Part shown: positions 18,668 through 45,269 of the stretch, piece by piece
How positions within the stretch are numbered: position 1 is the first letter of the stretch
Layout of the letters: every line of letters begins with the position of its first letter
From: a phage
Sequence record: PX068456.1
DNA: 64,000 nt
Direction: 5' to 3' (one strand)
The notes under the pieces: generated by a model
Told to the model about the DNA's origin: nothing
The model's input: the letters and a program-made list of their open reading frames with translations, nothing else
The model's database searches: none
Made by a program: the position numbers and the translations under genes

Positions 18668-19026
18668 TGTGCACTACTAATCAACATGATATTTGTTACC
18701 AACCTCTTACTTGGATTGGTGAGGATCACTATGCTCAACGTGTTATAGTCTGCGCTGCGAATAAGTATATTCTCAACAATGGCGAAGAGTTAATTATTCC
18801 TTGTGTTAGGCATGCAAATCCTGTACTATCTGCACAACTTAATGTTTTAAAAGATGCAGGATTGATTGGTAAACTGTTTTGCTTACCTGATAATCAAGGG
18901 TTTATTGATCAGTATTATAACTGGTGGAGTCGCAAAGATGCTTATATCATTGCAGATAACGCCAAACAAATTAACTACGAAAGAAATGGTCACGACAGTG
19001 AACTATTCAGCGAGGGATTATACTAA
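18664..19026 (+). CDS. hypothetical protein
   Basis: 120-aa ORF, ATGA overlaps. Confidence 0.5.
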   Translation: MMCTTNQHDICYQPLTWIGEDHYAQRVIVCAANKYILNNGEELIIPCVRHANPVLSAQLNVLKDAGLIGKLFCLPDNQGFIDQYYNWWSRKDAYIIADNAKQINYERNGHDSELFSEGLY

Positions 19027-19578: not shown

Positions 19579-20511
19579 GTGGCTAAGTTCAATTGTGATG
19601 ACCTGATTGCAAAAGGTTTAGTGCATAAAAAAGAAGTTAAATCTGGAGAGTATGCTGGTCTTGCTGTACTTAAATACAAAAACAATGTATTCTGGGACAA
19701 CTTGTGGGACGTAGACAAACGCCTTCTAGATTGTCGTGGGTTGGTTGTTGACTCAGAAGACAATGTTGTTATTTGGCCTTTTACTAAAATCTTTAATCGT
19801 TTTGAGAATGGTACAGATCTTCCAGCAGACCATCTTGTAGATGCTGTCCGTAAAGTAAACGGTTTTATGGCATCTGTAGGTGTGTACAAAGGGCAACTTA
19901 TTGTATCAACAACAGGGAGCCTAGAGTCAGATTTTGCAATTCTTGCCAAGAACCATATTGTTTCCGAGTGTGATGACATAGAATATTTCATTAAGTGGAC
20001 AGAAAGTGCAAAAGCAACTTTCCTTTTTGAAATCTGTGATCCTTCTGATCCACATATTGTTGAAGAAGAACCAGGCGCATACTTAATTGGAGCAAGGATT
20101 CAAAATCCTGATGGGACAAGTTTCATGCTACCCGAAGGTGTGCTTGATGGGATTGCATCTATTACAAAATTTAAACGTCCTGAAGTTTATCCGATGATTA
20201 AATTTTCAGATGTTGTTGAAATGTCTAAACATTGTAAGCACGAAGGGTTTGTTATTCGTGAAACAAACTATCCGTTTAACTTGCTGTTAAAGATTAAGTC
20301 ACCATATTATCTTGCTAAGAAATTCCTTATGCGTGGTGGCAATAAGAAGTGGGATATGATTTGGGACAACCCAAAAAATGCTAAACAAATTGTTGACGAA
20401 GAATATTATACTTTGCTAGAATGGCTTCGAAACAACTTTACTAAGACTCAATGGGCTGCTTTAGATCCACAAGAGCGACGTAAAGAAATAGAAAACTTCT
20501 TTGGAGGCTAA
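19579..20511 (+). CDS. Rnl-family ATP-dependent polynucleotide ligase, probable RNA ligase
   Basis: GTG start after aaggag; nucleotidyltransferase motif I KVNGF and motif V EGFVIRE. Confidence 0.55.
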   Translation: MAKFNCDDLIAKGLVHKKEVKSGEYAGLAVLKYKNNVFWDNLWDVDKRLLDCRGLVVDSEDNVVIWPFTKIFNRFENGTDLPADHLVDAVRKVNGFMASVGVYKGQLIVSTTGSLESDFAILAKNHIVSECDDIEYFIKWTESAKATFLFEICDPSDPHIVEEEPGAYLIGARIQNPDGTSFMLPEGVLDGIASITKFKRPEVYPMIKFSDVVEMSKHCKHEGFVIRETNYPFNLLLKIKSPYYLAKKFLMRGGNKKWDMIWDNPKNAKQIVDEEYYTLLEWLRNNFTKTQWAALDPQERRKEIENFFGG

Positions 20512-20916
20512 ATGAAACAACTTATCATTTTACGTGGTGTTTCAGGTGCAGGTAAATCTACAGTAGCAGAAATTATTTCTGAAGGTTATTGGCCTATCTG
20601 TGAGGCAGATCAATATCATTACACAGAAAGTGGTGTTTACGATTGGAAGCCAGAGAATGTAGGTAAAGCACACGCATGGTGTCAGAGTATTGTTCGTGAT
20701 GCTATGGCATCTAATATTAAAAAGATTATTGTCTCTAACACTTCAACCACAGAGAAAGAACTTAAACCTTATTTAACTCTTGCTGAAGAGTTTGGTTATC
20801 AAGTTATCTCCTTAGTTGTTGAAAATAGGCACGGTAACGACTCAATTCATGAGGTTCCACAACATATTCGTGATCAGCAAGAGAAACGTCTTCGCAGTTC
20901 ACTTAAGCTACAATAA
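20512..20916 (+). CDS. P-loop polynucleotide kinase-like protein
   Basis: N-terminus MKQLIILRGVSGAGKST resembles the T4 Pnk kinase domain. Confidence 0.6.
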   Translation: MKQLIILRGVSGAGKSTVAEIISEGYWPICEADQYHYTESGVYDWKPENVGKAHAWCQSIVRDAMASNIKKIIVSNTSTTEKELKPYLTLAEEFGYQVISLVVENRHGNDSIHEVPQHIRDQQEKRLRSSLKLQ

Positions 20917-35985: not shown

Positions 35986-36183
35986 ATGATGCTAGATCAA
36001 CTGATCAATGCTCCTCGCGTAACAGTAAGTCCAAAAACATTTGCATCACTTTTAGAAGATGCTAAAGAGGTTTATAACTTTACTGAAGAAGAGCTTCCTG
36101 TTCCTGTTGAAAAAGGTTCCAGATGGTTGTTTTATGAAGGTATTATTTTTACCGAAGGGAATAATTGGAAGGAGACTAAATGA
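35986..36183 (+). CDS. hypothetical protein
   Basis: start at the ATG after aaggagg (MMLDQLINAP...). Confidence 0.45.
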   Translation: MMLDQLINAPRVTVSPKTFASLLEDAKEVYNFTEEELPVPVEKGSRWLFYEGIIFTEGNNWKETK

Positions 36184-37169
36184 AATACTTAGTAACAGGT
36201 GGTTTAGGCTTTATTGGAAGTGCGGTAGTTCGTTTCCTGGCTAAAAATACTAAGAATGATATTTACGTTATAGATAAATGGGGTTACGCTTCAGATCCTA
36301 GAAATTTATCAGAAACACCCAATGTAAAGTTTTGTCGTGTTGACTTGACAAATGCGCAGTTAACTGCTAAGATTGTGGCAGATGTTAATCCAGATTATAT
36401 AATGCATCTTGCAGCAGAAAGTCACGTAGATAATTCAATAGCATCACCGAGTGTTTTTATAAATTCAAATATTGTTGGGACATTTAATCTCCTAGAAGCT
36501 GTTCGTTTAATGGGAGATAAATCAAATCTTAAAATGTTCCATCATATTTCAACAGATGAAGTATATGGTGATATGGAAGAAGGGGATTATCCGTTTACAG
36601 AACAGAATCCTTATAAGCCAAGTAGTCCATATGCTGCATCTAAGGCAGCAAGCGATCATTTGGTAAGAGCGTGGCATCGTACTTATGGTATTCCGACAGT
36701 TATAACAAATTGTTCAAATAATTTTGGAGCATATCATCATCCAGAAAAACTAATACCTAAAACGATAACAAATATCTTGATGCATAAACCAATCCCTGTT
36801 TATGGTAATGGTCTTCAAGTAAGAGACTGGTTATACGTTGACGATCACGCAGAAGCATTACACCTAGTAGTAACTAAAGGCAAATCTGGAGAAACATATA
36901 ATATTGGGAGCAGAAACCCTAGAACTAATATTGATGTAATCTATATGATTTGTGATTATATGGATGCGGTGTATCCATCTGAAACAGATGCTTGTAGCCT
37001 CATTGAGATGGTTACAGATAGACCTGGGCATGATTTAAGATACGAAGTGAATCCTTATAAGATTGAAAAGGAATTAGGGTGGAAAGCTAAAGGCACATTT
37101 GAAGAAAAACTTTATTCAACCATTGATTGGTATGTAGATAACAAAGAGTGGTGGGAAAATAAAGTTTAA
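36180..37169 (+). CDS. rmlB: dTDP-glucose 4,6-dehydratase
   Basis: N-terminal [10 protein letters not shown] Rossmann motif and YAASKAASD active-site motif. Confidence 0.85.
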
Positions 37170-37177
37170 GGAGGAGT

Positions 37178-38047
37178 ATGAAAGGTATTATCTTAGCAGG
37201 TGGTAGTGGAACAAGACTTTACCCAGTTACTAAAGGGGTTAGTAAACAACTATTACCAATTTACGATAAACCTATGATTTATTATCCACTCTCTGTCCTA
37301 ATGCTTTCTGGAATTAGGGAAATACTAATAATTACAACACCAGAAGATCAAATTAATTTTGTAAATCTTCTAGGTGATGGTTCTTCTTTTGGTATTTCCC
37401 TACAGTATGCAATACAAGAAAGCCCGAAAGGTTTAGCAGAAGCGTTTATTATTGGTGAGAGCTTTATTGGCGAAGATTCTGTAGCACTTGTGCTAGGTGA
37501 TAATTTATTCTTTGGTCAGAGTTTTGGTAGCATTTTAGATTCTGCTAAAGAACATATTGAAAAGAATGGTGGAGCTAATATTTTTGGGTATCACGTAAAT
37601 GATCCTGAAAGATTTGGTGTTGTTGAGTTTGATTCTGAAGGTACAGTGGTGAGTATTGAAGAAAAACCAAAAACACCAAAAAGCAACTATGCAGTTACAG
37701 GCTTGTACTTTTACGATAATTCTGTTATACAGAAAGCTAAGAGCGTTAAACCTTCTGCTAGAGGGGAGTTAGAGATTACAGATATAAATGAGATGTACTG
37801 GAAAGAAAAGACTTTACGTGTCTGTAAACTAGGAAGAGGTTTCACTTGGCTGGATACAGGAACACATGAAAGTCTTATGGAAGCATCTCAATTTGTTCAT
37901 GCAATAGAAAAGCAACAAGGTATGAAGGTTGCATGCCTAGAAGAGATTGCTTTTAAAAATGAATGGATTACTTTAGACTCTGTAAAAAGTTCTGGAGAGG
38001 TTTTAAGTAAAACAGACTACGGTAAGTATTTACTTAAATTAAAATAA
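37178..38047 (+). CDS. rmlA: glucose-1-phosphate thymidylyltransferase
   Basis: N-terminal [16 protein letters not shown] signature. Confidence 0.9.
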
Positions 38048-38059
38048 AGGGGGAATTAA

Positions 38060-38614
38060 ATGATTCAAGCAACAAAAATCGAAGATTTGTTGATCATTCA
38101 ACCTGACGTTTACGGAGATGAACGTGGCTTTTTCTTAGAAAGTTTTAATCAGGCTTTATATGATCAATACATAGGTAAACAAAACTTTGTCCAGGATAAC
38201 CACTCACGTTCTATTCGAGGAGTTCTACGTGGGCTTCATTTTCAAAAGAAAAACCCACAAGGGAAGTTAGTACGTTGTGTTCGTGGTGAAGTTTATGATG
38301 TTGCTGTAGATATTAGGGTTGGTAGTCCAACATTTGGAGAATGGGTAGGTGTTCTCTTATCTGAAAAGAATAAAACACAATTTTGGATTCCTCCTGGTTT
38401 CGCTCATGGCTTTGTTGTGATTAGCGACATTGCTGATTTTGAATATAAATGTACAGAATATTACGATCCGACTTCAGAGTGTAGTCTTGCGTGGAATGAT
38501 CCAGATATCAATATAGATTGGGGTTTTGATTTAATCTTTAATGATATTAATTTTAAACCTATCTTGTCACAAAAAGATCAGCAAGCCAAAACACTAAAGG
38601 AGATCATATTTTGA
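38060..38614 (+). CDS. rmlC: dTDP-4-dehydrorhamnose 3,5-epimerase
   Basis: 184-aa cupin with RGFFLESF and RGLHFQ motifs. Confidence 0.8.
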   Translation: MIQATKIEDLLIIQPDVYGDERGFFLESFNQALYDQYIGKQNFVQDNHSRSIRGVLRGLHFQKKNPQGKLVRCVRGEVYDVAVDIRVGSPTFGEWVGVLLSEKNKTQFWIPPGFAHGFVVISDIADFEYKCTEYYDPTSECSLAWNDPDINIDWGFDLIFNDINFKPILSQKDQQAKTLKEIIF

Positions 38615-39441
38615 CAAAATTTTTAATCTTTGGTTCAAAAGGTCAATTAGGACAGTCTTTGGCAAAAGTTGCGCCCGAAGATGTTATTTTGATTGAAGCA
38701 AGTGATGTAGACATTACCAACTTTAAAGATGTTATGAATAGTCTTGTACAGCATGTGCCTGATGTTGTTGTGAATTGTGCGGCTTACACGGCAGTAGATA
38801 AAGCTGAAGAAGATGTTAACACCTGTATAAATGTTAATGCATACGGTGCAACAAACATTGCCAAAGCATGTAATGATTTACTGATACAGTTTGTACATAT
38901 TTCAACAGACTATGTTTTTGATGGGCATGTTGCTGGCACAGAAGAGAGTAAAACAAACCCCTTGAACACCTACGGTTACAGTAAACAATTAGGTGAAACT
39001 TTAGTACAAACAGTTTGTCCTACAGCACTTATTATCAGAACAGCTTCTGTTTATAGTGAGTTTGGACATAACTTTTTGAAAACTATGTTGGAACGCTACA
39101 ACGGTGGTCAAAAAGAATTTAATGTAGTATGTGATCATTTATCATGTCCTACTTATGCACCTGATCTTGCAGAAACAATTTTTAAACTTGTAAAAGATGG
39201 TGTAAATAGTAAAATTGTACACTATGCAGGTGCAGATTATATTTCTTGGTATGATTTTGCACGAAAGATATTTCTTGTTATAGATTTATCTGTTACAGTT
39301 AATCCTGTATCTGCTTCAACCTATAATTCCAAAGCAGTCAGACCAGCAACATCTTATTTAAAAACAGATCCTACTTTAAATCCGCGAAGTGTTGATAGCG
39401 GTATTGTAAGAACTTTAACTATACTTTTAAACAAGGAGTGA
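38611..39441 (+). CDS. rmlD: dTDP-4-dehydrorhamnose reductase
   Basis: 276 aa, N-terminal FGSKGQLGQ Rossmann motif; last gene of the rml operon. Confidence 0.7.
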   Translation: MTKFLIFGSKGQLGQSLAKVAPEDVILIEASDVDITNFKDVMNSLVQHVPDVVVNCAAYTAVDKAEEDVNTCINVNAYGATNIAKACNDLLIQFVHISTDYVFDGHVAGTEESKTNPLNTYGYSKQLGETLVQTVCPTALIIRTASVYSEFGHNFLKTMLERYNGGQKEFNVVCDHLSCPTYAPDLAETIFKLVKDGVNSKIVHYAGADYISWYDFARKIFLVIDLSVTVNPVSASTYNSKAVRPATSYLKTDPTLNPRSVDSGIVRTLTILLNKE

Positions 39442-40367: not shown

Positions 40368-40390
40368 AAAGGGGCGAAAGCCCCTTTTAT
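40368..40390 (+). terminator. rho-independent terminator
   Basis: ggggcgaaagcccc hairpin plus ttttat. Confidence 0.6.
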
Positions 40391-40403: not shown

Positions 40404-41156
40404 ATGGGAAATAAAACCGCAAAGGCTCGTCGTCAATCAGCAGCCAATGATGACAAACGTGCCAGTCGTTATGCGGCTAAAGCAGTAGGAAATGATGATT
40501 ACCGTCTTGATGAATTTACCCCTGTTGGGAATCAAGAAGCTATTGTAAGAAGCATGGTTTGGAATGATTTAACCATTGTTAATGCCCCAGCAGGAACAGG
40601 AAAAACGACAACAGCACTATGGAAAGCATTGCAAATGCTTAAAGCTGGTGACTTCAGAAAGTTGATTTTCCTTAAAAACCCGACAGAAGTAGGTGATGAC
40701 CAAATCGGTTTCTTATCTGGAGATAAGACTGATAAACTAGCAGCACACTACGAGTCAACTAAAAGAATTTTCCAACAGTTTATGACTGCAAATAAATTGG
40801 AAAACGATATTGCAAGTGGCAAAATTGAACTTAATATTCCAAACTATGCACTAGGTGCTACGTGGGATAACAGCATTATTCTTATTGATGAAGTTCAACT
40901 TATGTCACCAAACACAGTAAAACTTCTCCTTGAGCGAGCAGGTCTTAATACACGAATTGTCATTATGGGTGATGTTAATCAAACATATGCAATTAAACGA
41001 AGAGCTAACGGGTTAGGTGATTTGTTAGATCGTGTTGTTCCTATTAACGAAGAAGGAGAAAGGGAAGCTATTGTAGATTTTATTGGTTATGTTGAAATGA
41101 CAACTGCTGATAACCAACGTTCCCGTTTGTCTCAGTTCATCACGGAAGTATATTAA
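40404..41156 (+). CDS. phoH: PhoH-like ATPase
   Basis: Walker A NAPAGTGKTT, 250 aa. Confidence 0.8.
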   Translation: MGNKTAKARRQSAANDDKRASRYAAKAVGNDDYRLDEFTPVGNQEAIVRSMVWNDLTIVNAPAGTGKTTTALWKALQMLKAGDFRKLIFLKNPTEVGDDQIGFLSGDKTDKLAAHYESTKRIFQQFMTANKLENDIASGKIELNIPNYALGATWDNSIILIDEVQLMSPNTVKLLLERAGLNTRIVIMGDVNQTYAIKRRANGLGDLLDRVVPINEEGEREAIVDFIGYVEMTTADNQRSRLSQFITEVY

Positions 41157-41192
41157 TAATTACAAGGCAAGGATGCCTGTTATGGAGGTTAA

Positions 41193-41687
41193 ATGACGCT
41201 AATTGAGATTGATCGCAATGGTATTGATGAATGCTATCAAGCTGGCTTAGTTAAGCCGAATGAGTTTAGACAGATTTATATTGACAAGATTGAAAAAGAA
41301 ATATCTCTTCGTTTAGAGAACATGACAACTTTGCAAAAAGTTCAGATGTTTTTTAGTTGGTTAAAAGGAGAGGATTGGCTAACTAAATATTACCAGGAAT
41401 TATCTGATAGTCAAGAAGGCTTGTTTGAGTGTATAATAAATGTAGCCGGATCTAATTCAGAATTACTCCTGATTGATGAAGAAGATTCTAAACTTCTTTT
41501 TCTTAGCAGTATCTTTCACAAGAAGTCTATGTTAGTAAGAAATTGCAGTGATTTACTAAATCATCCACTAACAAGAACTAATAAAATTCTTGTGGATAAA
41601 GAAACACTAAGAGCTATTGATTACCTACGTAAGTATGTAAGCGGTGGTAAAGCAGTCCTTAAAACACTACAGGAGGAAGTACAATGA
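41193..41687 (+). CDS. hypothetical protein upstream of the HslV-like gene
   Basis: 164-aa ORF, ATGA overlap with the next gene. Confidence 0.5.
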   Translation: MTLIEIDRNGIDECYQAGLVKPNEFRQIYIDKIEKEISLRLENMTTLQKVQMFFSWLKGEDWLTKYYQELSDSQEGLFECIINVAGSNSELLLIDEEDSKLLFLSSIFHKKSMLVRNCSDLLNHPLTRTNKILVDKETLRAIDYLRKYVSGGKAVLKTLQEEVQ

Positions 41688-42337
41688 CAACAATTATTGC
41701 AACACATAACAAAATTCTATCTGACGGTAAAGTAACAGTAGGTAATCGAGTAGACACTTTAAATTTCAAGAAAGTGCGTAAAATTGGGGATTACCTTGTT
41801 GGTGGTGCAGGACGTCTGTCTTCTATCCTGACTTTCTTTTCTTGGTTTGAACAAAACTTACAGTGCCAGGCAGCACAAGAGACAATCCCAGGTTTGGTGA
41901 TCCAATCAGATCCTGATAAAGAAGATGAAGAGTTTGTGGCATTGGTTGTTCACCCAGACGGTAAAATTTATATGCACGAGGGTAATAATCCAACGCGAGC
42001 ATATCCTTTAACTGAAGATTACTATGCTGTTGGTAGTGGGGCAGATTTTGCTTTAGCAGCTTTAGACGCTGGGGCAACCCCAGAAGAAGCGATGGAAGTT
42101 GCAAAACTACGAGATGCTTTTTCAGGCGGTGAAACTTTTGTTGAAGAGATCGAAGAACAACTGGAGCTAACAGCGGAAGATATTCTGAACTTCAGCAAGG
42201 AGCAACTAATTAGTATGCTGTTGACTGGTGATCCTGATAGTGATGAAGCTGAAAGTATTTTAGCAGAAATGAAAGAATCACAAGAAAAAGTGTTGACAGT
42301 CTCTGAAAAACTTGATAAAGTGTCCTCTGATAATTAA
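41684..42337 (+). CDS. HslV-like Ntn-hydrolase (proteasome beta-type peptidase) with acidic C-terminal extension
   Basis: Thr directly after Met (MTTIIA...), KKVRKIGDYLVGGAG and YYAVGSGADFALAA align with HslV MTTIVSV..KKVRRL...GFAGG...GSGG. Confidence 0.6.
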   Translation: MTTIIATHNKILSDGKVTVGNRVDTLNFKKVRKIGDYLVGGAGRLSSILTFFSWFEQNLQCQAAQETIPGLVIQSDPDKEDEEFVALVVHPDGKIYMHEGNNPTRAYPLTEDYYAVGSGADFALAALDAGATPEEAMEVAKLRDAFSGGETFVEEIEEQLELTAEDILNFSKEQLISMLLTGDPDSDEAESILAEMKESQEKVLTVSEKLDKVSSDN

Positions 42338-42346
42338 TCTAACATA

Positions 42347-42366
42347 AACCCCCTCACGGGGGTTAT
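42347..42366 (+). terminator. rho-independent terminator
   Basis: ccccctcacggggg hairpin plus tt. Confidence 0.5.
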
Positions 42367-44696: not shown

Positions 44697-45269
44697 ATGC
44701 GTTTAGCTTTTAACGGGAAGATAAGCACAGCAAACATATTGTCAGCAGTAGGATTATTAGGTAAAAAATTTACACCTTTCAGTTTACCAGTTTGTGTAGA
44801 TTTTGATCATGTGTTTGATATTAATAATCCTTCACGTTGTATTGCCAGAAGTAATATTGATAACCCAAGTGAAAATCTGTTTTACATTACTAAACCATCC
44901 CAGGCAATTTTGAATCAATGGGAAGCAGGTCTGATTAAACCAGGTAAATATTTTGCATTACTACCTTGTAAATCATTGGCTATAGAGGACAGTCTAAACT
45001 ATGCAAACAATCTTGTTGTTACAGCATTCATTGTCTCAGAAAAAGAAGAAACTGCGGCACTTGCAAATACTGTTAAATCTTTGTATGATGCTTTGGGTGT
45101 TACTTACACTACATTCGTTTGTGAAGATATTCCACATTGCGTTGAATTTGTAGTAAATGGTGTAACTGTATGTCGTGTAGAAACAACGCAAGATGAGGAC
45201 GTTTTTATTACTGTAGCCGATGTAATATCTGAACCTGTGTTTAGTTACGCAGTTTCATTAACACATTAA
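44697..45269 (+). CDS. hypothetical protein
   Basis: 190-aa ORF. Confidence 0.5.
   Translation: MRLAFNGKISTANILSAVGLLGKKFTPFSLPVCVDFDHVFDINNPSRCIARSNIDNPSENLFYITKPSQAILNQWEAGLIKPGKYFALLPCKSLAIEDSLNYANNLVVTAFIVSEKEETAALANTVKSLYDALGVTYTTFVCEDIPHCVEFVVNGVTVCRVETTQDEDVFITVADVISEPVFSYAVSLTH

Follow-up and report, generated by a model that had tools for sequence, protein, structure and literature searches.

This report concerns a gene for a proteasome-like peptidase (41684..42337, forward strand) in a 64,000-nucleotide stretch of phage DNA, sequence record PX068456.1, the whole of which is referred to below as the window. We consider that its product is probably a propeptide-less peptidase with an N-terminal threonine nucleophile, belonging to the compact phage branch of the proteasome relatives, assembling as a ring-shaped homo-oligomer and working without the canonical docking of an HslU-type unfoldase.

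Nucleotide identity to public records identifies the window as DNA of a phi92-like E. coli myovirus, Justusliebigvirus (Stephanstirmvirinae). Salmonella phage UAB_1 shares 99.5% identity with the region, Escherichia phage PHB05 99.4% and phi92 98.3%, and about 50 further Justusliebigvirus records match it. The peptidase open reading frame (ORF) is the orthologue of phi92 gp058 (gene_058), is 98-100% identical to annotated public genes and matches PHROG phrog_1040, 'peptidase HslV family', with an E-value of 1.5e-62. A preliminary description of this DNA, made from the letters alone, had presented the gene as a discovery, but it is not new: RefSeq and PHROGs both label it already, the names on record being 'peptidase HslV family', 'putative 20S proteasome', 'putative proteasome component' and 'putative nucleophile aminohydrolase'. 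Phage-linked proteasome homologues were published as a class by Fuchs, Alva and Lupas in 2021 (PMC8665760), and HslV genes without HslU were remarked on in a Salmonella jumbo-phage paper (PMC7823757). What the present analysis adds is the placement of the protein outside HslV, an acidic pore-side loop, a conserved helix behind the catalytic core, the companion gene gp059 and a natural deletion. The two ORFs delimited in the preliminary description, 41193..41687 and 41684..42337, are both present exactly, encode 164 and 217 amino acids and overlap by 4 bp, as it had also noticed, in a stop/start ATGA. The peptidase gene and its parts are as follows.

41684..42337, forward strand: peptidase gene (proteasome/HslV-like N-terminal nucleophile, or Ntn, peptidase), 217 amino acids plus stop, recognised from the ORF, phrog_1040, PF00227 and near-identical annotated genes
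41671..41676, forward strand: AGGAGG ribosome-binding site of the peptidase gene, inside the 3' end of gp059, read from the sequence
41684..42148, forward strand: Ntn-hydrolase core, residues 1-155, from conserved columns, the AlphaFold2 model and Foldseek
41687..41689, forward strand: codon of Thr2, the predicted N-terminal nucleophile (Thr1 after loss of Met)
41885..41932, forward strand: acidic loop, residues 68-83 (IPGLVIQSDPDKEDEE), at the position of helix H2 and the pore loop
42149..42334, forward strand: acidic C-terminal extension, residues 156-217, containing the helical motif of the next line
42167..42229, forward strand: conserved helical motif after the core, residues 162-182 (LTAEDILNFSKEQLISMLLTG), from the alignment and the AlphaFold2 helices

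Fold and active site of the peptidase

The peptidase is an Ntn hydrolase of the proteasome-beta/HslV fold with a complete active-site set. The ORF scores 24.4 bits against the Pfam Proteasome model PF00227 (gathering score 22.4), and in a phmmer search of the PDB sequences the thirteen leading matches are all HslV (best E-value 2.4e-7), with KKVRKIG aligned to KKVRRL or RKVRKLG of HslV and AVGSGADFALAA to AIGSGGPYALAA. The family profile reaches HslV among the PDB sequences with an E-value of 2.6e-12. The AlphaFold2 model of the protein has a mean pLDDT of 82.5, with the blocks of the core mostly above 85, and Foldseek matches it with a probability of 1.00 to structures of HslV, BPH and proteasome beta subunits. 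By Pfam, PHROG, phmmer, profile and Foldseek alike, the resemblance to HslV on which the preliminary description rested is thus well beyond chance, and the two stretches at which it had seen the match are the ones that phmmer aligns. The comparison of a predicted structure with HslV, which it had proposed as a check, returned an Ntn-hydrolase fold, and the active-site lysine and threonine whose absence would have spoken against it (K30 and T2) are present in every homologue aligned.

Conservation was assessed by aligning 29 homologues, the most distant of them at 32% identity. Invariant positions include M1, T2, T3, D14, K30, G41, G43, G117, S118, G119 and G149, while R143, D144, S147 and G148 of the RDxxSGG motif are near-invariant. 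In proteasome numbering, D14 corresponds to Asp17, K30 to Lys33 and S118 to Ser129, and R143-D144-x-x-S147-G148-G149 forms the proteasome motif that carries Asp166 and Ser169; G41 and G43 belong to the conserved catalytic set, for which the listed proteasome counterpart is Gly47. The catalytic residues of the proteasome are those of Huber 2016, as relayed in PMC7468587, and are also listed in Fuchs 2021 (PMC8665760). The N-terminus reads MTTIIATH, and the Met-Thr-Thr start, in which the preliminary description had already seen a threonine nucleophile, is found in all full-length homologues across 29 loci, bar one ORF-calling artefact. Because the full-length homologues all begin in this way, a propeptide is absent, and methionine aminopeptidase would suffice to expose Thr1, given the known specificity of that enzyme. 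The AGGAGG site lies 8 nt upstream of the start, and the phi92 record annotates the same site. The gene is real, and its product is probably active.

Placement outside HslV and within the compact phage branch

HslV proper is a dodecamer of two hexameric rings that is activated by HslU and encoded in an hslVU operon. Although HslV is the closest solved family to the phage peptidase by sequence and fold, and both proteins share a Thr-Thr-Ile N-terminus after removal of the methionine together with the KKVR and GSG motifs, the sequence indicates that the peptidase is not HslV proper. It falls far short of the curated HslV equivalog models of NCBIfam, NF003964 and TIGR03692, scoring 34.5 bits with the first (cut-off 137) and 32.2 bits with the second (cut-off 157.75), and no hslU gene accompanies it, either next door or elsewhere in the genome. 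The phage protein has the proteasome-type RDxxSGG where HslV has its own C-terminal sequence, a shorter H3-H4 connection and an additional acidic tail, and in the model it lacks helix H2 and carries acidic residues in place of the basic pore cluster of HslV.

An exhaustive profile search, covering 1.84 billion representatives, finds thousands of representative clusters with the family profile. At E <= 1e-30 it delimits a long family of 57 clusters, to which the peptidase belongs, and the next tier consists mostly of proteins of 138-156 amino acids that span the whole core; sampled members of this tier start with MTT, lack the H2 segment and possess RDxxSGG. In a local comparison the family profile scores these proteins of about 140 amino acids at 88-117 bits, versus 42 bits for HslV of E. 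coli K-12. The phage family and the short proteins also share the short H3-H4 connection, at which HslV has a 9-residue insertion. In a viral structure library, 51 cluster representatives match the peptidase model, and compact Caulobacter-phage proteins of 131-146 amino acids reach target-normalised TM-scores of 0.83-0.88. The long family occurs in 167 phage records and is restricted to large virulent phages, and a pattern scan of 185,579 bacterial species genomes gave a 425-bp contig as its sole match; as far as such a scan can detect, the long family is confined to phages.

Because the protein fails the equivalog cut-offs, has proteins of about 140 amino acids as its nearest tier, shares their short H3-H4 connection and matches compact phage structures, we place it among the compact phage-type proteins of Fuchs et al., as a PPH-like core with an extension, judging by the descriptions of that branch. 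Like PPH and RPC, whose reference sequences are WP_042125023.1 and WP_140207863, respectively, it has a compact core without helix H2 (in the phage peptidase, according to the AlphaFold2 model), no propeptide and the catalytic Thr1, Asp17, Lys33 and Gly47 (PMC8665760). With PPH it shares carriage by tailed phages, and with RPC a C-terminal extension, of 62 residues in this case. PPH differs in having about 140 residues, against the 217 of the phage peptidase (a 155-residue core and a 62-residue tail), and the proteins of this size make up the next-nearest tier, outside the cluster of the long family; RPC differs in having been reported only from proteobacterial genomes, whereas the long family is confined to phages here.

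Two further relatives are more distant. BPH resembles the phage peptidase in its acidic stretch at the pore-loop position, its proteasome-type active site and the lack of an identifiable partner unfoldase, and its structures 5ovt and 5ovs are among the top Foldseek matches. It differs in possessing H2 with an elongated pore loop behind it and in its chromosomal location within stress-related operons; BPH forms 14-mers (PMC5777263), and it is absent from the best 60 of the 67 matches of the family profile to PDB sequences at E <= 0.001. The 20S proteasome beta subunit shares the fold and the full catalytic constellation, including the RDxxSGG motif with Asp166 and Ser169; in contrast to it, the phage peptidase is much smaller, has no propeptide, alpha-subunit partner or H2, and is only 14-20% identical in sequence.

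The pore-side loop and the docking of HslU

In the AlphaFold2 model, helix H1 (residues 45-67) is followed by a 16-residue loop (68-83) and a strand (84-89), and the second helix is absent. The loop carries a net charge of -5, and the corresponding charge lies between -2 and -6 in 28 of the 29 aligned sequences, the remaining one being a remote outlier of 178 amino acids (P0082) with a charge of +1. Sequence alignments set the loop segment PDKEDEEF opposite HslV residues 84-91, so that Arg86, Arg89 and Lys90 of HslV align with Lys79, Glu82 and Glu83 of the phage peptidase, a reversal of charge at two of the three positions. Both elements matter for HslU: the pocket in HslV that receives the C-terminus of HslU is formed partly by the H2 residues Ala79 and Lys80 (PMC6429459), and the basic pore cluster Arg86/Arg89/Lys90 changes on HslU binding (PMC5777263). 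BPH, for its part, has an acidic pore loop and no identifiable unfoldase, and it did not pull down HslU (PMC5777263).

No HslU gene was visible to the preliminary description, and this holds for the window and for a full phi92-type genome (506-bp gap excluded), in which tblastn with E. coli HslU gives a best E-value of 3.1. It had accordingly suggested that the phage protein may employ the host's HslU. In that case the peptidase would substitute for HslV and dock onto host HslU (ClpY), giving a hybrid ATP-dependent protease of altered specificity. The closeness to HslV in sequence, fold and N-terminus speaks for such a hybrid, as does the failure to find a phage HslU, although HslU-like genes are carried by some phages, namely Erwinia and Salmonella jumbo phages. 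To our knowledge, moreover, all known hosts are gamma-proteobacteria possessing HslUV. The curated HslV thresholds, the closer kinship with phage-type proteins of about 140 amino acids, the missing H2 with its share of the pocket and the altered pore cluster all point the other way, and we regard a hybrid protease of this kind as unlikely. Canonical docking of host HslU in particular is made unlikely by the absence of H2 from the model and the charge reversal of the pore cluster. Of the preliminary interpretation, the Ntn hydrolase and the absence of an HslU gene are supported, whereas the assignment to HslV proper, the canonical use of host HslU and the role in maturation discussed below are not.

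Classic AAA ATPases of the phage itself were considered as partners too. Phages of this type encode two of them, both outside the window.

Phage PD211 (OM401812.1), ~83.4-84.5 kb, reverse strand, and ~99.8-101.0 kb, forward strand: two paralogous classic-AAA (PF00004) ATPases of ~380 amino acids, phrog_2376
L004:34393-35520, reverse strand, and L006:300-1460, forward strand: coordinates of these AAA genes on the genome fragments

The Walker region of ClpX weakly matches both genes. They were rejected as a dedicated unfoldase: phrog_2376 occurs in 373 phage records, among them many from Gram-positive hosts, myoviruses included, and phages of Bacillus, Enterococcus and Staphylococcus that have no such peptidase; its genes are 40-55 kb distant from the peptidase gene, and the family is not enriched in peptidase-carrying Vibrio phages.

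The C-terminal extension

The acidic tail of roughly 60 residues mentioned in the preliminary description measures 62 residues (156-217), of which 17 are acidic and 5 basic, for a net charge of -12. Tails of 42-224 residues, all net acidic, are found in 28 of the 29 aligned sequences. The first part of the extension contains a motif with the consensus LT.E....SKEEL(I/L)..L..G, in which L175 is nearly invariant and for which AlphaFold2 predicts helices at residues 164-168 and 172-181. This motif is kept in every lineage, including the homologues in Vibrio, Aeromonas and Klebsiella phages at about 35% identity. Past it, the tail differs in length and content among phages, some of which carry extra C-terminal domains.

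The neighbouring genes gp059 and PhoH

The peptidase gene sits in a block of nucleotide-metabolism genes, and two neighbours upstream of it recur with it.

41193..41687, forward strand: orthologue of phi92 gp059, 164 amino acids, a confidently predicted all-alpha fold without known relatives
40404..41156, forward strand: PhoH-like P-loop ATPase gene (PF02562 at 1.4e-35)

A gp059-family ORF lies directly upstream of the peptidase gene in all 22 phi92/phAPEC8-like loci, at a spacing of -4 to +39 bp, and the pairing extends to contigs whose peptidase is only 41-42% identical. The ATGA overlap in the window is consistent with translational coupling of gp059 and the peptidase. Judged by this gene order, gp059 is a clade-specific companion of the peptidase in the phi92/phAPEC8-like clade. 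Vibrio and Aeromonas phages have an ORF of 149-167 amino acids in the same position, and Shewanella phage 1/4 has none. Homology of gp059 with these same-position ORFs of about 150 amino acids was rejected at hhalign probabilities of 0.1-2%, and the downstream gp057 is likewise unrelated. Tandem 'HslV family' genes in Aeromonas phage 4L372D had raised the idea that gp059 might be a diverged second proteasome-like subunit; this was discarded as well, since gp059 is all-alpha and the 4L372D paralogue is unrelated to it. That paralogue, gene 228 (L008:2432-2983), is a very divergent Ntn/proteasome-like gene of 183 amino acids with the start M-T-C and lies directly upstream of the family member, so that this one phage has a tandem proteasome-like pair. 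In Vibrio phage 1.193.O, gene 018 (L007:1767-2867), a 366-amino-acid ORF annotated as 'coil containing protein', stands between PhoH and the peptidase and, judged by eye, resembles a transposon protein of the TnpB/OrfB type, with a cluster of Cys residues at the C-terminus. The PADLOC defence models match none of the peptidase, gp059 and gp057.

PhoH lies upstream of the peptidase on the same strand in each of the five lineages examined, at a distance of 72-2,545 bp where this could be measured, about 2.7 kb away in Aeromonas phage 4L372D and directly adjacent in Shewanella phage 1/4. This constancy raises the question of whether the peptidase could be the protease half of a phage ATP-dependent machine, with PhoH as its partner (and gp059 as adaptor) or with one of the phage AAA ATPases. 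In addition to the conserved order, the existence of two PF00004 proteins in this phage type would suit such a machine, and so would the natural deletion described below, which removes parts of PhoH, gp059 and the peptidase together. However, 614 phage records contain PhoH of this type and 167 contain the peptidase, and PhoH is not known to act as an unfoldase. In most of these phages the upstream genes also include an endolysin, by scoring in the phi92/phAPEC8-like loci and by annotation elsewhere, so the common order may be a matter of inheritance. Because PhoH is far commoner than the peptidase and the endolysin gene is upstream as well, inherited gene order is an adequate explanation of the association. 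With the distribution and distance of the AAA genes also weighing against them, a phage ATPase as partner appears to us distinctly improbable. Less probable still is its most specific form, a three-part degradation or processing machine of PhoH, gp059 and peptidase, in which protein, or nucleic-acid-bound protein, would be fed to the peptidase ring by a P-loop ATPase of the PhoH type instead of an AAA+ unfoldase, and gp059 and the conserved C-terminal helix of the peptidase would serve as the coupling elements.

The head module and a natural deletion

The preliminary description had also offered maturation protease as a possible role, which would make the enzyme the prohead (capsid) protease. 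Phages need a maturation protease and the gene does encode a peptidase, but the head module (1134..8012), with capsid, decoration protein, Mu-type portal and large terminase genes, is about 35 kb away on the opposite strand and contains a candidate of its own.

3686..4177, reverse strand: head-protease candidate between the portal and capsid genes, 162 amino acids, phrog_3017 (1e-12) and phrog_34096
40748..41869, forward strand: stretch missing from the record of phage VEcB, with the 8-bp repeat GCAGCACA at its borders, established from the P0043 sequence, coverage and the blastn junction

The best PHROG match of the ORF at 3686..4177 is phrog_1530, 'DNA methyltransferase', a label that looks like that of a fused-protein or mislabelled family.

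In the VEcB record, protein P0043 consists of PhoH residues 1-113 joined to peptidase residues 64-217. Mapping of the junction with blastn shows an in-frame deletion of 1,122-1,130 bp, by which half of PhoH, all of gp059 and the Thr1, Asp and Lys of the peptidase are lost. It is found only in MT932211.1 and NC_052663.1 (48% coverage). P0043 was accordingly rejected as a 'Rosetta stone' fusion of PhoH and peptidase, being a deletion remnant without Thr1; RefSeq labels this remnant 'peptidase HslV family' although its nucleophile is absent. Because the deletion is present in one sequenced VEcB stock, the PhoH-gp059-peptidase block looks dispensable for laboratory propagation in that stock, yet it is kept in nature, the region being intact in 53 other records besides an independent VEcB sequence (OZ035773.1).

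The deletion argues against an essential or morphogenetic role of the peptidase, given that a stock without the catalytic N-terminus was still propagated and sequenced. Furthermore, the phi92 record notes counterparts of PhoH, DprA and the methylase in related groups of phages, PVP-SE1 among them, but none for gp057-gp059. The position in a nucleotide-metabolism block, the separate candidate and the deletion together contradict the proposal of a maturation protease, to which we attach hardly any probability.

Other features of the window

A GC-rich hairpin follows the peptidase gene and belongs to a set of three.

42347..42364, forward strand: GC-rich hairpin with a 7-bp stem and a 4-nt loop, just 3' of the peptidase stop and before the ribosome-binding site of the next gene

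Its centroid fold has an energy of -12.6 kcal/mol with a z-score of only -1.75, and the terminator scan does not call it, since a T run is absent. Short GC-rich hairpins occur at 40368..40387, 41165..41178 and 42347..42364, in the gaps after the lysozyme, PhoH and peptidase genes; the scan recognises none of them as a forward-strand terminator, and they are no more numerous than in shuffled sequence, but they might be RNA-processing or stability elements. The promoter and terminator scan as a whole gave no excess over shuffled sequence.

Four consecutive ORFs at 36180..39441 (forward strand) correspond to a putative dTDP-rhamnose pathway as annotated in phi92, comprising dTDP-glucose 4,6-dehydratase, glucose-1-phosphate thymidylyltransferase, 3,5-epimerase and 4-dehydrorhamnose reductase. 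The glutaredoxin, lysozyme and PhoH genes follow shortly downstream of them, while a related contig, L011, has its epimerase and reductase genes downstream of the peptidase gene instead. The 190-amino-acid ORF at 44697..45269 (forward strand) matches phrog_4806, 'histidyl tRNA synthetase', and bears the same name in the phi92 record; it has no Pfam match and is far too short for HisRS, which makes the label doubtful. At 19579..20916 (forward strand), a T4 Rnl1-type RNA ligase (PF09511) is followed by a 134-amino-acid P-loop kinase-like protein (AAA_33), and with a phosphoesterase gene at 19026 these look like an RNA-repair cassette, the middle gene of which is named only 'ATPase' in the phi92 record.

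Proposed mode of action

By analogy with its solved relatives, the peptidase would form a ring-shaped homo-oligomer with the active sites inside. Given the lack of H2 in the model and the acidic, not basic, character of the pore-side loop, it probably acts without canonical docking of an HslU-type unfoldase, a mode of action proposed for BPH. Peptides and unfolded proteins are possible substrates, as are specific proteins. The variable acidic tail, or the extra domains in its place, could project outward together with the post-core helix and recruit a partner or substrate, and gp059 would be the likeliest partner in the phi92/phAPEC8-like clade. In the life of the phage, the gene would be an accessory one for host takeover or fitness rather than for morphogenesis.

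Several considerations weigh against this proposal. A literature search returned no biochemical or genetic experiment on any phage member of the family. The absence of H2 belongs to a predicted structure, and BPH, which serves as the analogy, is itself poorly understood and was inactive on model substrates (PMC5777263). Host HslU, or another host AAA+ protein, might still be used in a non-canonical way. As for the accessory role, the deletion is known from one VEcB record, and the independent VEcB sequence is intact.

An accessory peptidase with C-terminal modules that differ among phages, which suggests targeting, might also be a sequence-specific processing enzyme, transpeptidase or amidase, acting in the manner of connectase on a single host or phage target such as a defence or stress protein. 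The superfamily does include connectase, a monomeric and highly specific ligase (PMC8665760). The model, on the other hand, has nothing like the insertion that covers the active site of connectase and confers its specificity. The protein matches no family of defence or anti-defence genes, and no candidate substrate has emerged; a specific enzyme of this type seems to us distinctly improbable. Our preference remains with the ring-shaped, propeptide-less peptidase of the compact phage branch.

Implications

Proteasome-like peptidases are common in phages. Were this family to act without an unfoldase, or through an unconventional partner, it would reveal how a virus makes use of a minimal relative of the proteasome in the course of infection. 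The association with PhoH and gp059, which rests on gene order, is a lead, and work on the peptidase could illuminate phage PhoH; should the three-part machine prove real, it would provide the first function for phage PhoH, which is among the commonest unexplained phage genes.

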